A stretch of 10,708 bases of DNA. Source: a virus. The first letter of the stretch is position 1. Each line of letters opens with the position of its first letter. Made by a program: the position numbers and the translations under genes. Of this stretch, positions 1-8,732 are shown piece after piece. Where the stretch lies: UHGV virus genome UHGV-0299297; one strand, given 5' to 3'. The notes beneath the pieces are model-generated. The model did not search any database. It was given only the letters and a program-made list of their open reading frames with translations, and had not been told where the DNA came from.

Positions 1-132
1 GCTGCAAAAACAGCGACGAGACAATCTTCACGGCCAGCGATTCTGGCGGCAGCTCCCGTCCGTAGCGTTCCAGTACATACTCAGTGGCATACACACCGAC
101 ACCACCGGCAACCACACAGATAACCGTCGCCA
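1..132. repeat. Left arm of a perfect 132-bp inverted repeat; exact reverse complement of 298-429
   Basis: Direct base-by-base comparison: the reverse complement of 1-132 equals 298-429. The match stops at 133/297 and may extend beyond the left window edge. Confidence 0.9.
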
Positions 133-2107: not shown

Positions 2108-2743
2108 ATGAACACTCTCGCAAATATTCAGGAACTCGCGCGCGCACTGCGCAACATGATTCGCACCGGCCTTGTCGTCGAAACCGACCTTAACGCCGGT
2201 CGATGCCGTGTGCAGACCGGCGGCATGTGCACCGACTGGCTTCAGTGGCTGACCCATCGTGCCGGACGTTCGCGCACATGGTGGGCACCTTCCGTGGGGG
2301 AACAGGTGCTGATTCTGTCTGTGGGCGGTGAACTCGACACGGCGTTCGTTCTGCCGGGGATTTATTCCGGCGATAACCCCGCGCCGTCTGCGTCGGCGGA
2401 TGCCCTGCATATCCGTTTCCCTGACGGGGCGGTGATTGAGTATGAACCCGAAACCAGTGCACTCACGGTAAGCGGAATTAAAACGGCCAGCGTGACGGCT
2501 TCTGATTCTGTTACCGCCACGGTGCCGGTGGTCATGGTGAAAGCATCAACCCGCGTCACCCTGGACACACCGGAGGTGGTCTGCACCAACAGGCTGATTA
2601 CCGGCACGCTGGAAGTGCAGAAGGGCGGGACGATGCGCGGCAACATTGAACACACCGGTGGTGAACTCTCATCAAACGGTAAGGTACTGCATACCCATAA
2701 ACACCCCGGCGACAGCGGCGGCACAACCGGGAGTCCTCTATGA
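2108..2743 (+). CDS. V: Baseplate central spike protein gpV
   Basis: 211 aa in the conserved position. The C-terminal HTHKH motif (DNA 2690-2704) matches the His-rich iron-binding apex described for the P2 gpV spike. The stop overlaps the W start. Confidence 0.9.
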   Translation: MNTLANIQELARALRNMIRTGLVVETDLNAGRCRVQTGGMCTDWLQWLTHRAGRSRTWWAPSVGEQVLILSVGGELDTAFVLPGIYSGDNPAPSASADALHIRFPDGAVIEYEPETSALTVSGIKTASVTASDSVTATVPVVMVKASTRVTLDTPEVVCTNRLITGTLEVQKGGTMRGNIEHTGGELSSNGKVLHTHKHPGDSGGTTGSPL

Positions 2744-3087
2744 CAGCGCGTTATCTCGGAATGAATCGCAGTGATGGCCTGACTGTCTCTGACCTTGAGC
2801 ATATCAGCCAGAGTATCGGCGATATCCTGCGCACGCCGGTCGGCTCACGGGTGATGCGTCGTGATTACGGCTCGTTGCTGGCGTCAATGATTGACCAGCC
2901 GCAGACCCCGGCGCTTGAGTTGCAGATTAAGGTCGCCTGTTACATGGCGGTGCTGAAATGGGAACCCCGCGTCACCCTGTCATCCGTCACCACGGCGCGC
3001 AGTTTTGACGGTCGAATGACGGTCACGTTAACCGGCCAGCACAACGACACCGGCCAGCCACTTTCGTTAACCATCCCTGTGAGTTGA
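2740..3087 (+). CDS. W: Baseplate wedge protein gpW (T4 gp25-like)
   Basis: 115 aa. ATGA overlap with the V stop and GGGAG ribosome binding site upstream. Conserved V-W-J-I order. Confidence 0.9.
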   Translation: MTARYLGMNRSDGLTVSDLEHISQSIGDILRTPVGSRVMRRDYGSLLASMIDQPQTPALELQIKVACYMAVLKWEPRVTLSSVTTARSFDGRMTVTLTGQHNDTGQPLSLTIPVS

Positions 3088-3091
3088 AACC

Positions 3092-4000
3092 ATGCCGATT
3101 ATCGACCTGAACCAGCTACCCGCACCGGATGTGGTCGAGGAGCTGGACTTTGAAACCATTCTCGCTGAACGCAAGGCGACACTGATTTCCCTTTACCCGG
3201 AAGATCAGCAGGAGGCGGTCGCCCGTACCCTGACACTGGAATCTGAGCCTCTCGTCAAACTGCTGGAAGAAAATGCTTATCGTGAGCTTATCTGGCGTCA
3301 GCGTGTGAATGAGGCCGCACGGGCGGTGATGCTGGCCTGTGCCGCCGGTAATGACCTTGATGTGATTGGTGCCAATTACAACACCACGCGCCTGACTATT
3401 ACCCCGGCAGATGATTCGACTATCCCACCGACACCGGCAGTGATGGAATCTGACACCGATTATCGTCTGCGTATTCAGCAGGCTTTTGAGGGCTTAAGCG
3501 TCGCCGGGTCAGTGGGAGCCTATCAGTATCATGGCCGCAGTGCCGACGGGCGTGTCGCGGATATCTCTGTCACCAGTCCGTCTCCGGCCTGCGTCACTAT
3601 CTCTGTGCTGTCACGTGAAAATAACGGCGTCGCATCCGAAGACCTGCTGGCCGTGGTGCGTAACGCCCTTAATGGCGAGGACGTCAGGCCGGTGGCCGAC
3701 CGCGTGACCGTGCAGTCTGCCGCCATTGTTGAATATCAGATAAACGCCACGCTTTACCTTTACCCTGGTCCCGAAAGCGAACCCATCCGCGCTGCTGCCG
3801 TGAAAAAACTGGAAGCGTATATCACGGCACAGCACCGGCTGGGGCGCGACATCCGTCTGTCTGCCATTTATGCCGCTTTGCATGTGGAGGGCGTGCAGCG
3901 TGTCGAGCTGGCCGCACCACTGGCCGACATCGTGCTCAACAGTACGCAGGCGTCTTTCTGTACCGAATACCGCGTCGTGACCGGAGGCTCGGATGAGTGA
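3092..4000 (+). CDS. J: Baseplate wedge protein gpJ (T4 gp6-like)
   Basis: 302 aa, the P2 gpJ length. The stop overlaps the I start (ATGAGTGA). Confidence 0.9.
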   Translation: MPIIDLNQLPAPDVVEELDFETILAERKATLISLYPEDQQEAVARTLTLESEPLVKLLEENAYRELIWRQRVNEAARAVMLACAAGNDLDVIGANYNTTRLTITPADDSTIPPTPAVMESDTDYRLRIQQAFEGLSVAGSVGAYQYHGRSADGRVADISVTSPSPACVTISVLSRENNGVASEDLLAVVRNALNGEDVRPVADRVTVQSAAIVEYQINATLYLYPGPESEPIRAAAVKKLEAYITAQHRLGRDIRLSAIYAALHVEGVQRVELAAPLADIVLNSTQASFCTEYRVVTGGSDE

Positions 4001-4604
4001 TTCGCGCCTGCTGCCGACCGGCTCATCACCGCTTGAAATTGCTGCCGCGAAAGCCTGTGCGGAAATTGAAAAAACGCCGGTCAGTATTCGTGAACTGTGG
4101 AACCCGGACACCTGCCCGGCAAATCTGCTGCCGTGGCTGGCGTGGGCCTTTTCGGTCGACAGGTGGGATGAAAAGTGGCCGGAAGCGACAAAACGCGCCG
4201 TTATCCGCGATGCCTATTTCATCCACTGTCATAAGGGTACTGTCGGCGCAATCCGGCGTGTTGTGGAGCCGCTCGGCTATCTGATTGAAGTGAGGGAGTG
4301 GTGGCAGCTCAACGAGGAGCCGGGGACGTTCCGTATCGTTGTTGGCGTGCTTGAGCAGGGTATTACCGAAGAAATGTATCTGGAGCTGGAACGTCTCGTT
4401 GCTGATGCAAAACCGGCGAGCCGCCATCTGACGGGACTGGCTATCAGTTTAAGTACAACCGGCAACATTTTTGCCGGAACGGGATGCTATCACGGTGACG
4501 CCCTGACGGTTTATCCCTACACCCCGGAGGCCATTATTGTCGGAGGGGATTATTTCCCGGCCTCGGTCATTCATTTAATTGATAACCTGAGAGTAAACGC
4601 ATGA
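3993..4604 (+). CDS. I: Baseplate protein gpI
   Basis: 203 aa. GGAGG ribosome binding site upstream. The stop overlaps the H start (ATGA). Confidence 0.85.
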   Translation: MSDSRLLPTGSSPLEIAAAKACAEIEKTPVSIRELWNPDTCPANLLPWLAWAFSVDRWDEKWPEATKRAVIRDAYFIHCHKGTVGAIRRVVEPLGYLIEVREWWQLNEEPGTFRIVVGVLEQGITEEMYLELERLVADAKPASRHLTGLAISLSTTGNIFAGTGCYHGDALTVYPYTPEAIIVGGDYFPASVIHLIDNLRVNA

Positions 4605-6280
4605 CAGTGAAATACTACGCCATTCTGACTAATCAGGGCGCAGCACGACTGGCTAACGCGACGATGCTCGGCAGTAAGCTGAATCTGACGCAAATGGCCG
4701 TTGGTGATGCGAATGGTGTATTACCGACACCAGACCCGGCACAGACAAAACTGATTAACCAGAAACGCATTGCACCGCTGAATCTTCTGAGTGTTGACCC
4801 TAACAATCAGAGCCAGATTATTGCGGAGCAAATTATCCCTGAAAACGAGGGAGGATTCTGGATCCGTGAGATTGGGCTTTATGATGATGAAGGCGTACTC
4901 ATTGCGGTGGCGAACTGCCCGGAAACGTACAAACCGCAGTTGCAGGAAGGCAGTGGTCGTACCCAGACTATCCGCATGATTCTGGTTGTCTCGAATACCG
5001 AAGCCATCACGCTGAAAATCGACCCGTCGGTGGTACTGGCGACCCGTAAATATGTGGATGACAAAATCTCAGAACACGAACAGTCACGACGACACCCGGA
5101 TGCATCGCTGACCGCAAAAGGTTTTACTCAGTTAAGCAGCGCAACCAACAGCACGTCTGAAACACTGGCCGCAACGCCGAGAGCGGTAAAGGTCGCGTAT
5201 GATCTTGCTAACGGGAAATATACTGCACAGGACGCGACCACAGCGCGAAAAGGTCTTGTCCAGCTCAGTAGCGCCACCAACAGCGATTCTGAAACGCTTG
5301 CGGCAACGCCAAAGGCGGTAAAGACAGCATATGACCTTGCTAACGGGAAATATACCGCACAGGACGCGACCACCGCGCGAAAAGGCCTTGTCCAGCTCAG
5401 CAGCGCCACTAACAGCACGTCAGAAACGCAGGCTGCCACACCAAAAGCCGTGAAGGCTGTATATGACCTTGCCAATGGAAAACAACCTGCCGACGCCACA
5501 CTGACCGCACTGGCAGGCCTTGCCACTGCGGCAGACAAACTTCCGTATTTTACGGGGAATGATACAGCCAGCCTGACAACCCTGACTAACGTTGGACGGA
5601 ATATTCTGGATAAAGCAAGCACACAGGCGGTTATTCAATATCTTGGTCTGAGCGATGCAAGTGGATACGTTGGACGCTGGCTGAATACCCGGGTTTTCAC
5701 CTCATCAGGTACGTACACCCCGACGCCAGGAACAAAACGGATCAGGGTCACAATAACTGGCGGCGGTGGCGGAGGGGGCGGCTGCAAGGCTACATCCAAT
5801 AATGAAACGTTTTTCGGTGCTGGCGGTGGGGCCGGTGGAACAATAATTTCAATAATTACCCCGACACAGAATAGTTATCCAGTCACTATCGGCGCAGGTG
5901 GGGCCGGTGGTGTTAGTGCGACGAACGGCACCAGTGGCGGGAATAGCGTATTTGCATCGTTAATTGCTCCTGGTGGCGCAGGTGGCGGGAAAGTGGGAGT
6001 TACAAATACAAACGGCGGTAACGGAGGTGTGCCGAGTACTGGCGATATCCGCATCACTGGTGGAAATGGAGGCGACGGTCAGTCCGGAAATATCAGCGTC
6101 AGCGGTGAAGGCGGAACATCGTACTGGGGTGGCGGTGGACGCGCAGGCGCTGGCGGTGGCGTTAGCGGTAAGGCATATGGTTCAGGCGGAGGTGGTGCAT
6201 ACGATGCCGGTTATAGCGGAACCAGTATGACGGGCGGGAAAGGCGCTGCAGGGATTTGTATTATCGAGGAGTTTGCATAA
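4601..6280 (+). CDS. H: Tail fiber protein gpH: conserved N-terminal baseplate-attachment region, central tail-fibre repeats, glycine-rich C-terminal domain
   Basis: 559 aa. The N-terminal ~150 aa resemble the P2 gpH-family collar/attachment region. The centre has three tandem ~44-aa repeats (SSATNS-SETLAATPKAVK-YDLANGK). The C-terminus is glycine-rich, including an 8-Gly run, and ends CIIEEFA. Confidence 0.9.
   Translation: MTVKYYAILTNQGAARLANATMLGSKLNLTQMAVGDANGVLPTPDPAQTKLINQKRIAPLNLLSVDPNNQSQIIAEQIIPENEGGFWIREIGLYDDEGVLIAVANCPETYKPQLQEGSGRTQTIRMILVVSNTEAITLKIDPSVVLATRKYVDDKISEHEQSRRHPDASLTAKGFTQLSSATNSTSETLAATPRAVKVAYDLANGKYTAQDATTARKGLVQLSSATNSDSETLAATPKAVKTAYDLANGKYTAQDATTARKGLVQLSSATNSTSETQAATPKAVKAVYDLANGKQPADATLTALAGLATAADKLPYFTGNDTASLTTLTNVGRNILDKASTQAVIQYLGLSDASGYVGRWLNTRVFTSSGTYTPTPGTKRIRVTITGGGGGGGGCKATSNNETFFGAGGGAGGTIISIITPTQNSYPVTIGAGGAGGVSATNGTSGGNSVFASLIAPGGAGGGKVGVTNTNGGNGGVPSTGDIRITGGNGGDGQSGNISVSGEGGTSYWGGGGRAGAGGGVSGKAYGSGGGGAYDAGYSGTSMTGGKGAAGICIIEEFA
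5117..5485 (+). repeat. Tandem direct repeat, period 132 bp, about 2.8 copies, inside H
   Basis: Copies begin at 5117, 5249 and 5381 (AAAGGNYTTGTCCAGCTCAGYAGCGC...). They are near-identical at DNA level, with a few substitutions. Confidence 0.85.
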
Positions 6281-6690
6281 TGAATGCGTCATATGCAGTT
6301 ATTGAAAATGGGATGGTTGTGAATGTCATTGTCTGGGATGGTGAGGATGAATTCACTGTGCCGGATAATCTGCAGCTCATTAATATTTCTGATATCAGTG
6401 AGCAGCCCGGAATCGGCTGGGCGTATTCAGACGGGGTATTTACTGCGCCGCTCCCTCCGGAACGTTCTCATGATGAACTGGTAGCTGACGCTGAACAGAA
6501 AAAACAGTCGCTGTTAGACGCAGCAATGGCCAATATCAGCGTGATTCAGTTAAAGCTGCAGGCCGGGCGCAAACTGACGCAAGAGGAAACTACCCGACTT
6601 AACGTTGTGCTGGATTATATCGACGCTGTGACGGCAACAGATACCAGCACCGCACCGGATGTCATCTGGCCTGAACTGCCGGAGGCGTAG
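6280..6690 (+). CDS. G: Tail fiber assembly chaperone gpG (Tfa)
   Basis: ATG at 6280 overlaps the H stop (TAATG) and has a GAGGAG ribosome binding site at 6266-6271. The track start at 6256 is a TTG and is not preferred. The gene follows H, as tail fiber assembly genes do. Confidence 0.85.
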   Translation: MNASYAVIENGMVVNVIVWDGEDEFTVPDNLQLINISDISEQPGIGWAYSDGVFTAPLPPERSHDELVADAEQKKQSLLDAAMANISVIQLKLQAGRKLTQEETTRLNVVLDYIDAVTATDTSTAPDVIWPELPEA

Positions 6691-6790
6691 ACCATTCAAT
6701 ATCTGACGTACCGGAAGTATCGGACCGCTCCGGTGCGTACAGGTAATCCAGCCACAAATTATATTGCGCCAGTACCTCAGACCTGCCGGG

Positions 6791-6991
6791 CTATTGCTTA
6801 GTGTTCATGTGTTTATTGGCCTGATTAATCAGTAGCTGTCTTTCTGGTCGTGTGGATCCTGCAAATCCTGAATGGTCGGAAATACCGCAGGCGGGCTGAT
6901 TGCCCGCCTTTTTTATCTGTTGTTTCATCCACTGACCAGCCAGGTCAAATAGCGTCTCATGCTCTGCACAACAGAAAATAGTTGCACCCAT
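6791..6991 (-). CDS. Hypothetical 66-aa ORF antisense in the G-FI gap; probably not a real gene
   Basis: From the ORF track only. No convincing ribosome binding site, several rare codons (CTA, ATA, AGA, CGA, GGA), it spans the forward terminator, and its start lies over the FI ribosome binding site region. Confidence 0.15.
   Translation of the reverse strand: MGATIFCCAEHETLFDLAGQWMKQQIKKAGNQPACGISDHSGFAGSTRPERQLLINQANKHMNTKQ
6889..6916 (+). terminator. Rho-independent terminator ending the H-G transcript
   Basis: Stem AGGCGGGC (6889-6896), loop TGATT, stem GCCCGCCT (6902-6909), then TTTTTAT. In the reverse direction the stem is not followed by a U-run, so it is forward-oriented. Confidence 0.7.
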
Positions 6992-7010
6992 TAACCACGG
7001 AGTTAAACGG

Positions 7011-8201
7011 ATGAGTGACTATCATCACGGCGTGCAGGTGCTGGAGATTAACGACGGCACCCGCGTCATTTCCACCGTATCCACTGCCATTGTCGGCATG
7101 GTCTGCACGGCCAGCGATGCGGATGCGGAAACCTTCCCCCTCAATAAACCTGTGCTGATTACCAATGTGCAGAGCGCAATTGCAAAGGCCGGTAAAAAAG
7201 GCACGCTGGCGGCGTCGCTGCAGGCCATCGCTGACCAGTCAAAACCGGTCACCGTTGTCGTGCGTGTGGAAGACGGCACCGGCGACGACGAAGAAACGAA
7301 ACTCGCGCAGACCGTTTCCAATATCATCGGCACCACTGACGAAAACGGTCAGTATACCGGACTGAAAGCCCTGCTGGCGGCAGAGTCGGTAACCGGTGTT
7401 AAACCGCGTATTCTCGGTGTGCCGGGACTGGACACCAAAGAGGTGGCTGTTGCACTGGCATCAGTCTGCCAGAAGCTGCGCGCTTTCGGGTATATCAGCG
7501 CATGGGGCTGTAAAACCATTTCCGAGGTGAAAGCCTACCGCCAGAATTTCAGTCAGCGTGAGCTGATGGTCATCTGGCCGGATTTCCTCGCATGGGATAC
7601 GGTCACCAGTACCACCGCCACCGCGTATGCCACCGCCCGTGCGCTGGGTCTGCGTGCCAGAATCGACCAGGAGCAGGGCTGGCATAAAACGCTGTCCAAC
7701 GTCGGGGTAAACGGTGTTACCGGCATCAGCGCGTCCGTATTCTGGGATTTGCAGGAGTCCGGTACCGATGCTGACCTGCTTAACGAGTCTGGCGTCACAA
7801 CGCTGATTCGACGCGACGGTTTCCGATTCTGGGGTAACCGTACCTGCTCTGATGACCCGCTGTTCCTCTTTGAAAACTACACCCGCACCGCGCAGGTGCT
7901 GGCCGACACGATGGCTGAGGCGCACATGTGGGCGGTGGACAAGCCCATCACCGCAACGCTGATTCGCGACATCGTTGACGGCATCAATGCCAAATTCCGT
8001 GAGCTGAAAACAAACGGCTATATCGTGGATGCGACCTGCTGGTTCAGCGAAGAATCCAACGATGCGGAAACCCTTAAGGCCGGAAAACTGTATATCGACT
8101 ACGACTATACCCCGGTGCCTCCTCTTGAAAACCTGACCCTGCGCCAGCGTATTACCGATAAATACCTGGCAAATCTGGTCACCTCGGTTAACAGCAATTA
8201 A
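7011..8201 (+). CDS. FI: Contractile tail sheath protein gpFI
   Basis: 396 aa, the P2 FI length. Sequence is recognisably P2 FI-like from the N-terminus (MSDYHHGVQVLEIN...) to the C-terminus. GGAG ribosome binding site 8 nt upstream. Confidence 0.95.
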   Translation: MSDYHHGVQVLEINDGTRVISTVSTAIVGMVCTASDADAETFPLNKPVLITNVQSAIAKAGKKGTLAASLQAIADQSKPVTVVVRVEDGTGDDEETKLAQTVSNIIGTTDENGQYTGLKALLAAESVTGVKPRILGVPGLDTKEVAVALASVCQKLRAFGYISAWGCKTISEVKAYRQNFSQRELMVIWPDFLAWDTVTSTTATAYATARALGLRARIDQEQGWHKTLSNVGVNGVTGISASVFWDLQESGTDADLLNESGVTTLIRRDGFRFWGNRTCSDDPLFLFENYTRTAQVLADTMAEAHMWAVDKPITATLIRDIVDGINAKFRELKTNGYIVDATCWFSEESNDAETLKAGKLYIDYDYTPVPPLENLTLRQRITDKYLANLVTSVNSN

Positions 8202-8213
8202 GGAGCCTGACCG

Positions 8214-8732
8214 ATGGCAATGCCGCGCAAACTCAAGTTAATGAACGTCTTTCTGAACGGCTACAGCTATCAGGGCGTTGCAAAGTCCGTCACGCTGCCA
8301 AAACTGACCCGTAAGCTCGAAAACTATCGCGGTGCGGGGATGAACGGCAGCGCACCGGTAGACCTCGGCCTTGATGACGATGCGCTGTCAATGGAGTGGT
8401 CGCTCGGGGGCTTCCCGGATTCGGTTATCTGGGAGCTTTACGCCGCAACCGGTGTGGATGCTGTGCCGATTCGTTTTGCAGGCTCTTACCAGCGTGACGA
8501 TACCGGCGAAACGGTGGCCGTCGAAGTGGTCATGCGTGGACGTCAGAAAGAAATCGACACCGGCGAGGGTAAACAGGGAGAAGACACCGAGTCGAAAATC
8601 TCCGTGGTCTGCACCTATTTCCGGCTGACGATGGACGGTAAGGAGCTGGTCGAAATCGACACCATCAACATGATTGAGAAGGTGAATGGCGTCGACCGGC
8701 TGGAGCAACACCGCCGCAATATCGGCCTGTGA
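8214..8732 (+). CDS. FII: Tail tube protein gpFII
   Basis: 172 aa, the P2 FII length. AGGAG ribosome binding site at 8201-8205. Directly follows the sheath gene. Confidence 0.95.
   Translation: MAMPRKLKLMNVFLNGYSYQGVAKSVTLPKLTRKLENYRGAGMNGSAPVDLGLDDDALSMEWSLGGFPDSVIWELYAATGVDAVPIRFAGSYQRDDTGETVAVEVVMRGRQKEIDTGEGKQGEDTESKISVVCTYFRLTMDGKELVEIDTINMIEKVNGVDRLEQHRRNIGL

Follow-up and report, generated by a model that had tools for sequence, protein, structure and literature searches.

A probable Pam3 gp24-type glycine-rich tip, encoded together with its own assembly chaperone, on the P2-type tail fibre of an Escherichia coli prophage

The window analysed here, namely the whole stretch of 10,708 nucleotides of the virus genome UHGV-0299297, holds the tail-gene region of an Escherichia coli prophage of the P2 family. 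Its genes were named from the ORF list and Pfam, and occur in the order lysis/spanin, R/S-like tail completion, V, W, J, I, H and tfa, followed by the sheath gene FI, the tube gene FII, E/E' and the start of the tape measure gene (Table 1). The flanks at 2108-4429 and 6887-8359, which cover V, W, J and FI, are about 95% identical to P2 at the nucleotide level. The order V-W-J-I-H-tfa, then a terminator and the FI operon, is also that of P2, whose V-operon terminator lies at the position equivalent to the one found here; the fun(Z) region of P2, in contrast, is absent from the window. The closest relative, a prophage of E. coli MS 124-1, is 94-98% identical across the whole region.

In the H protein, Pfam recognises Phage_tail_fib at residues 1-150 (E=8e-63), Phage_fiber_2 in three stretches (196 bits) and Gly_rich_2 at residues 368-556. 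The family phrog_6202 of PHROGs spans both the P2-type N-terminus and the distal tip, and no NCBIfam model matched H or Tfa. The collar domain, the Phage_fiber_2 repeats and the place after gene I in the V operon are those of a P2-family H, and the collar domain, the fibre repeats and the joint as far as 'YLGL' are shared with canonical P2 H (NC_001895). Judged by sequence, the proximal half of H is a bona fide P2-type H, in which the DNA segment of the collar domain at 4429-4849 has diverged from P2 at the nucleotide level. The H of MS 124-1 has 603 aa (1812 nt) and is thus 44 aa longer than that of the window, and the repeat arrays of the two genes align in registers shifted by 132 nt; the length and the shifted registers are consistent with one additional 44-aa repeat unit in MS 124-1.

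Table 1. Positions of the features discussed, in window coordinates and, where available, in residues of the encoded protein
Feature	Position	Strand	Residues	Description
Tail fibre gene H	4601..6280	+		559-aa ORF; P2-type proximal part and foreign distal tip
Tail-collar / baseplate-attachment domain	4601..5050	+	H1-150	PF12571, 211 bits
Shaft repeats	5135..5472	+		132-nt (44-aa) tandem unit, 2.6 copies (TRF); PF03406
Joint segment '...DATLTALAGLATAADKLPYFTGNDTASLTTLTNVGRNILDKASTQAVIQYLGL'	5492..5647	+		77.6% nt identity to P2 H; last P2-like stretch, recombination site
Exchanged receptor-binding tip (probable)	5642..6277	+	H348-559	Predicted TNF-like beta-sandwich and polyglycine-II lattice, Pam3 gp24 / Gly_rich_2 type
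Ten Gly-rich segments (about 11-12 motifs)	5756..6253	+		Simple counting rule; variable loops between the segments
Gly-rich segments 1-5			H386-395, 405-414, 430-438, 456-464, 472-476
Gly-rich segments 6-10			H487-493, 502-505, 509-521, 527-534, 545-551
GGGGGGGG	5759-5782	+	H387-394	Gly motif
GAGGGAGG		+	H406-413	Gly motif
GGNGG, two copies		+	H472-476 and H487-491	Gly motif
Side ORF	5964..6230	+		88 aa
Side ORF	5875..6057	-		60 aa
'Hydrophobic tail' ICIIEEF	6254..6274	+		Last beta-strand in the model (DSSP, model residues 205-211)
TAATG	6278..6282	+		Overlap of H stop and tfa start, from the sequence
tfa, tail fibre assembly chaperone	6280..6690	+		136 aa; PF02413 (Caudo_TAP), 78.7 bits
Tfa domains			Tfa 3-55 and 64-119	N-terminal beta domain and C-terminal helical Caudo_TAP domain
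tfa' relic, second convergent tfa	6662..6772	-		C-terminal ~35 codons, '...WLDYLYAPERSDTSGTSDIEW...'; ORF and sequence
Rho-independent terminator	6889..6909	+		8-bp stem (7 GC), then T-run; closes the V-W-J-I-H-tfa operon
Sheath gene FI	7011-8201

Glycine accounts for 62 of the 176 residues (35%) at H384-559 (5750-6277), against 6.3% at residues 1-383, which bears out the original prediction of a Gly-rich end of about 175 residues; the Gly motifs quoted there and the terminal GICIIEEFA are likewise all present in H. In an alignment of 111 family members, 40-97% identical to the tip, nearly all invariant or near-invariant columns are Gly, and the Gly motifs are unvarying among 121 E. coli alleles. 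This enrichment is far beyond chance, and the conserved Gly columns exclude drifting low complexity. The domain had been placed at 5750-6280, a location that is correct for the Gly-rich stretch and too short at its start: the module shared with other phages begins at 5642 (H348, 'LGL'), and the first beta-strands of the tip domain lie upstream of the Gly-rich stretch at H360-386 (5678-5758), so that a start at 5750 loses the first three strands. The terminal GICIIEEFA, described at first as a short hydrophobic tail, is kept as 'GIxxIEExx' in the alignment of 111 members and aligns with 'GIIIVQYFS', the C-terminus of gp24 of cyanophage Pam3, which shares the pattern 'GI..I..(F/Y)'; in the predicted structure it is the closing beta-strand of a TNF-like sandwich. 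A membrane-anchor or lipid-binding role for this segment was rejected, because it is a conserved buried beta-strand.

The two side ORFs within this region have lengths typical of codon-order shuffles (the fraction of shuffles equal to or longer than the observed ORF is 0.34-0.97) and were for this reason rejected as real genes. They had been explained as by-products of the low-complexity GGN codons; the shuffle control agrees that they are by-products, and the GGN codons are not specifically needed, because the N-terminal part of H, which is not Gly-rich, gives equally long open frames.

The boundary between the two halves of H is sharp. By BLASTP, H1-352 aligns with P2 H1-383 at 59% identity and the alignment ends at '...AVIQYLGL', with no BLASTP similarity of the distal part of H to P2 H 384-669. 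DNA similarity to P2 stops at 5647 and restarts at 6887, directly at the terminator; no P2 similarity was found within 5648-6886. The protein alignment ending at 'YLGL' and the DNA break at 5647 support the earlier view of a mosaic H, with a P2-type N-terminus and a different distal domain. Collinearity of the C-terminal domain with canonical P2 H, the finding that would have spoken against a mosaic, was looked for and is absent, and the mosaicism stands.

On the distal side of this boundary, the similarity passes to phages of other kinds. Positions 5642-6660 are 91.8% identical in nucleotide sequence to the tip and tfa of prophages with Mu-like tails (Tfa, 91% at the aa level), whose baseplate genes are of Mu Gp45/46/48 type and whose fibre has only 308 aa; this similarity ends at 6660. 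Positions 5637-6635 are 67% identical in nucleotide sequence to the end of gp90 and to gp89 of the Escherichia jumbo phage Goslar (tip, 73% aa; Tfa, 64% aa). Goslar has in common with the window the cassette of tip and Tfa, the joint and the stop/start overlap, and differs in that its cassette is carried by a P1-S-like fibre of 1324 aa in a lytic, nucleus-forming phage of 237 kb. The tip-plus-tfa block common to the Mu-like-tail prophages and Goslar supports the proposal that the tip moves together with its Tfa. The joint motif also precedes the tip on other fibre scaffolds: tips with 87-99% aa identity were found on several further N-terminal scaffolds, and were always joined at '(Y)LGL(G/S)D.SGYVGR'. 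Three DNA comparisons thus agree, to within a few bases, on a left joint at 5642-5648, and this position falls in a motif common to otherwise different fibres. A homology search for the donor of the tip and Tfa had been suggested, and it yielded the above relatives but no single donor group, since the N-terminal scaffolds that carry the cassette are of at least five or six kinds. Among 5,426 complete E. coli genomes, 263 carry the tip-plus-tfa DNA at a coverage of at least 80%, and 147 contain the sequence of a probe across the joint of the P2 shaft and the tip; about 3-5% of complete E. coli genomes have the tip.

The product of tfa belongs to PF02413, for which the cut-off is 22.1 bits, and to phrog_188, 'tail fiber assembly protein' (E=1.7e-31), and its 1789 homologues are mostly of 134-138 aa. 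The AF2 model (pLDDT 88.6) consists of a beta domain, a linker and helices, and the domain boundaries match those reported for Pam3 gp25, which has a beta-sandwich at 1-55 and helices from 64, embraces the tip laterally and forms trimers via the helices (PMC9608196). Pam3 gp25 is likewise a small two-domain chaperone whose gene is directly downstream of that of the tip. The corresponding P2 protein G is different, with 175 aa and 29% identity to the Tfa of the window over only 128 aligned residues. The stop codon of H and the start codon of tfa overlap in TAATG, which suggests that the two genes are translationally coupled; an overlap of the end and start coordinates is seen likewise in Goslar and in the Mu-like-tail prophage.

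Overlapping the 3' end of tfa by 29 nt, there is a relic of a second, convergent tfa, and the equivalent stretch of MS 124-1 is annotated in RefSeq as a partial tail fiber assembly protein. Because this tfa' fragment stands tail-to-tail with tfa, in the manner of U and U', we considered whether the cassette is an active invertible host-range switch with two alternating tips, such as the Mu G, P1 C and e14 P segments. However, only about 35 codons of tfa' are left, no second tip, invertase or recombinase ORF was found between tfa and FI, and the distance from tfa to the sheath gene is only about 320 nt including the terminator, with nothing further annotated by RefSeq. An active switch is accordingly extremely improbable, and the tfa' relic is at best a fossil of one.

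As for the nature of the tip, the C-terminal 200 aa of H match PF21722 (Gly_rich_2) with 55.9 bits (E=8e-15; cut-off, 24.3 bits) over profile positions 2-224 of 226. An exhaustive HMMER search of 1.84 billion representatives gave 8,128 relatives with E<=1e-3, of which 1,326 had E<=1e-10. The domain is located at the extreme C-terminus in 131 of 136 full-length family matches, and in the present H it ends 1 residue before the stop. When a profile built from 111 members was compared with PDB, Pam3 gp24 (7yfw/7ypx) was found with E=2.6e-20 over gp24 residues 50-276 of 280, an alignment that takes in the entire domain up to its final residue; phmmer with the single tip sequence retrieved Pam3 at only E=0.018, and the family profile was therefore required. 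The AlphaFold2 model of the tip, obtained with the family alignment, has a mean pLDDT of 96.5 and a pTM of 0.91 with no segment below 50, and the predicted fold superposes on the solved structure of Pam3 gp24 (gp24 and gp25, PDB 7YFW and 7YPX; PMC9608196, PMC9942802). In this model the tip is a TNF-like beta-sandwich with an extended lattice of Gly-rich strands, and it contains central motifs of the GGGGxGG type, GGGGGGGG and GAGGGAGG. Gp24 itself has been described as a TNF-like sandwich with six loops, each carrying two Gly-rich motifs, that form a four-layer lattice (PMC9608196). The number of Gly motifs is similar in the two proteins: counted by one rule, the tip and gp24 have 10 Gly-rich segments each, and some segments hold two motifs. 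On the basis of sequence and predicted structure, we assign the tip with good confidence to the Pam3-gp24 / Gly_rich_2 family of fibre tips.

A Gly-rich stretch of this kind could also be read as a disordered or flexible low-complexity or collagen-like spacer, with receptor binding located elsewhere or in Tfa. The sequence complexity is indeed very low, 68% of the tip residues are without DSSP-assigned structure, and a tblastn search of the tip against 50,697 phage records with the complexity filter on gave no match. This empty search is a false negative caused by low-complexity masking, since Goslar and Klebsiella phages were retrieved by blastn in its 'distant' mode, and the DSSP pattern of the model (no helices, 67 strand residues) is the one expected for a beta-sandwich that bears a polyglycine-II lattice. 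The sequence conservation, the homologies in Pfam and PDB and the high confidence of the model exclude a spacer, which we regard as scarcely conceivable.

The assignment to the Pam3 gp24 family brings in a second comparison, because the Pam3 authors likened gp24 to S16 gp38 and to ALK (PMC9608196), and a survey of 2026 described Pam3 gp24 and Bxb1 gp33/gp29 as bundles of PPII helices of the S16 gp38 kind (PMC13243192). The tip of H might be a T-even gp38 adhesin (S16/T2/T6) fused to a fibre, which would recognise an outer membrane protein such as OmpC or FadL via hypervariable loops. This is very unlikely: there is no GP38 match in Pfam, 6F45 was not retrieved, and the tip is covalently part of H, whereas gp38 of Salmonella phage S16 is a protein of its own, which caps the fibre as a monomer and has another type of base domain. 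Of the other proteins in this circle, the TNF-like/glycine-rich ectodomains of ALK/LTK differ in belonging to eukaryotic cytokine receptors, and Bxb1 gp33 in being the tail-tip 'wing brush' of a siphovirus.

The name 'carbohydrate kinase', which NCBI gives to dozens of 88-99% identical tips (the 308-aa homologues), raises the question of whether the tip is an enzyme or an auto-processing module, for instance for LPS or capsule degradation, or a cleaved intramolecular chaperone; the authors of a study on a Klebsiella fibre of this class, TFP_Y, also leave open LPS hydrolysis by the fibre (PMC12671077). No kinase, hydrolase or Peptidase_S74 family was found in Pfam or NCBIfam, and fold searches with the tip retrieved nothing but fibre tips and the ligand-binding domains of ALK/LTK; no enzyme rose above background. 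In addition, the separate tfa gene downstream leaves no need for an intramolecular chaperone, and the 308-aa proteins occupy the tail-fibre slot after a Mu Gp48-like baseplate gene, which indicates that 'carbohydrate kinase' is a mis-annotation. An enzymatic or self-processing tip is thus highly improbable.

We consider it very probable that the end of H is a receptor-binding tip of the Pam3 gp24 type, which was fused at 'YLGL' to a P2-type shaft and is inherited with its own Tfa. The TNF-like beta-sandwich would form the base of the tip, from which paired Gly-rich strands would rise and pack as polyglycine-II helices in a hydrogen-bonded lattice, a geometry suggested by Pam3 gp24 and S16 gp38. 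By analogy, this rigid Gly lattice would present the non-Gly connecting loops as a variable receptor-binding surface. In Pam3 gp24, the proximal part is conserved and the variable distal tip has been proposed to be receptor-binding (PMC9608196). Variation among the 121 E. coli alleles falls between the Gly motifs, in the blocks H415-424, 442-454, 460-465 and 482-489; the entropy peaks at H444-445. The tip would be joined at '...YLGL' to the trimeric P2-type shaft, presumably with one tip per H chain and hence three per fibre, and the beta domain of Tfa would clasp the side of the tip and its helices trimerise, as in Pam3 gp25. The cassette appears to take the place of the P2 H tip, G and the downstream accessory region, and we propose that the phage has thereby been re-targeted.

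With regard to the receptor, the nearest experimentally studied relatives of the tip are the fibres of Jedunavirus-type Klebsiella phages. The fibre of Klebsiella phage BUCT_49532 is 65% identical to the tip over 202 aa without gaps, and the likeness of TFP_Y of SCNJ1-Y (PMC12671077) and of MMNM_27 (PMC11633184) is at the level of the class, within which the exact subtype may differ. A 297-aa representative, P0134, was considered as TFP_Y and rejected, because it has V169/T209 in place of T169/S209. For this fibre class, LPS binding and triggering of DNA ejection have been reported, and so have mutations of the glycine-rich domain that affect the host range (PMC12671077; see also PMC11633184). 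The Jedunavirus-type fibres differ from the present H in that they are short (285-297 aa), globular and baseplate-attached, belong to minimalist lytic myoviruses and have no adjoining tfa gene. A polyglycine-II scaffold is also able to bind a protein, as S16 gp38 binds OmpC (PMC9594776). By analogy with these systems, the receptor of the tip may be LPS or another surface glycan, with LPS as the most likely candidate, a proposal whose chances we put at about even. Taken as a whole, the mechanism is held with good confidence at the level of the fold and the cassette, and with moderate-to-low confidence at the level of the receptor.

A more far-reaching reading, which is speculative and which we think rather unlikely, is that the tip and Tfa make up an adhesin cassette of a plug-in kind, which would function regardless of context on trimeric shafts from four or more myovirus architectures with no relation to one another (P2-like, Mu-like tail, Goslar and P1-S-like). 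The three tips may be loosely associated monomeric lattice domains and not an intertwined trimer, the cassette may derive from a two-cassette invertible switch with tfa' as its fossil, and its E. coli receptor may be one that has so far been assigned to no phage.

That phages of unrelated kinds exchange H tips horizontally, along with the assembly genes, is textbook knowledge that dates back to the first sequencing of P2 H/G. The fold, the Pfam family, the principle of joint tip and tfa exchange and the protein itself (RefSeq 'tail fiber protein') are already in databases. The current view of tail fibre evolution is unchanged, and a specialist would not be surprised. A literature search found, in the library that it covered, no paper describing a Gly_rich_2-type tip on P2-like or E. 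coli phages; searches for PF21722/Gly_rich_2 gave only plant papers, and those for Peduoviridae with glycine-rich gave none. In the paper on P2 pseudotyping and in the RBPseg atlas, polyglycine is cited only via the S16 gp38 reference. The points of interest are modest: how widely the cassette has spread (P2-like, Mu-like-tail and jumbo phages), how often it occurs in E. coli, and the clean natural fusion point. Misleading database names can also be corrected, such as 'carbohydrate kinase' and, for the tail fiber assembly protein, 'partial'.

The fibre tip sets the host range, and the assignment to the Pam3 gp24 class is therefore practically useful, because it gives a structural template with which the specificity of the tip can be predicted and engineered. 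'...YLGL|' is a precise and naturally used fusion point for chimeric P2-type fibres. If the reading as a plug-in cassette is true, the tip and Tfa would be a ready-made and naturally validated module to re-target P2, P4 cosmid transducing particles and tailocins.

The mosaic character of this tail-gene region extends beyond the exchanged tip and tail fibre assembly gene. Nucleotide identity to P2 stays at about 95% up to position 4429, inside gene I, is then lost, and resumes at 4849 at a level of only about 79%. Judged from this sequence comparison, the interval 4429-4849 is a second mosaic joint, and the C-terminus of I and the collar domain of the tail fibre protein H would therefore come from a P2-like lineage other than that of V-W-J. 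Features located in H and downstream of it are collected in the table.

Features of the tail fibre gene H and of the region following tfa
Feature	Position	Strand	Remarks
H shaft repeat	5135-5472		unit 132 nt / 44 aa; 2.6 copies
tfa' relic, second convergent tail fibre assembly gene	6662-6772	minus	'...WLDYLYAPERSDTSGTSDIEWSTPP...'
66-aa ORF, unannotated	6791-6991	minus	includes terminator hairpin
Strong terminator	6889-6909		

Upstream of these genes, the S-like gene and V are separated by a gap of only 66 nt (2041-2108), whereas P2 carries orf30 on the opposite strand between S and V, and the related prophage of E. coli MS 124-1 has a hypothetical gene of 741 nt at this position. The window opens, in the lysis-gene region, with a foldback (1-429): 298-429 is a perfect (100%) inverted copy of 1-132, and the 165-nt spacer between the two copies (133-297) lies in the orientation opposite to that of the MS 124-1 prophage. 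The foldback could reflect a genuine inversion or have been introduced by the assembly.

The fibre protein H has 559 aa in the window versus 603 aa in MS 124-1 (L001 7820-9631), which is consistent with one extra shaft repeat in the latter, as judged from the protein length, and with fibre length varying through the copy number of this repeat.

In the MS 124-1 prophage, which is nearly identical, the assembly gene tfa (L001 9715-10041) is listed by RefSeq as a pseudogene 'missing N-terminus'. The equivalent ORF in the window is intact with 136 aa, and homologues of 134-138 aa are found on hundreds of contigs and in the jumbo phage Goslar; on the basis of this ORF and these homologues, the pseudogene call is probably wrong. 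The relic tfa' and the 3'-terminal part of the intact tfa overlap by 29 nt, and the similarity to the cassette of Mu-like-tail prophages stops at 6660, precisely at the start of the relic. The relic may have been left behind by an invertible-type arrangement with two cassettes. No lysogenic-conversion gene is present in 6690-7011, the slot occupied by fun(Z) in P2; this slot holds the relic, the strong terminator and the 66-aa ORF, which is probably spurious, and nothing else.

Dozens of 308-aa E. coli proteins with the same tip as H (P0004-P0120) are named 'carbohydrate kinase' in NCBI/nr, and this looks like a propagated mis-annotation; they are tail fibres of Mu-like-tail prophages (L004-L006 8001-8927), and downstream of their genes lie a Caudo_TAP gene and an Acyl_transf_3 gene. 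Among complete E. coli genomes, 74 of the 346 places matching a 5440-5860 probe are on plasmids, perhaps because some phage-plasmids carry fibre repeats or tips related to these. The Gly_rich_2 domain is not confined to the C-terminus in some representatives of its family, such as P0158, P0169, P0181 and P0184 (521-1078 aa), each having two or three tandem copies. The family profile also matches residues 2-197 of RemZ (PDB 8gl8_D, a chain of 1114 aa; E=2.7e-4), and this segment is a possible case of a Gly_rich_2-like domain in a protein other than a phage fibre.

In the Jedunavirus-type group, no tfa adjoins the fibre gene, and the gene that comes after it encodes a spanin on the opposite strand. 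Many Jedunavirus-type Klebsiella and Escherichia myovirus fibres match that of BUCT_49532, a Klebsiella representative, over only the first 257-278 nt or so, and thus tips have been exchanged within this group too.
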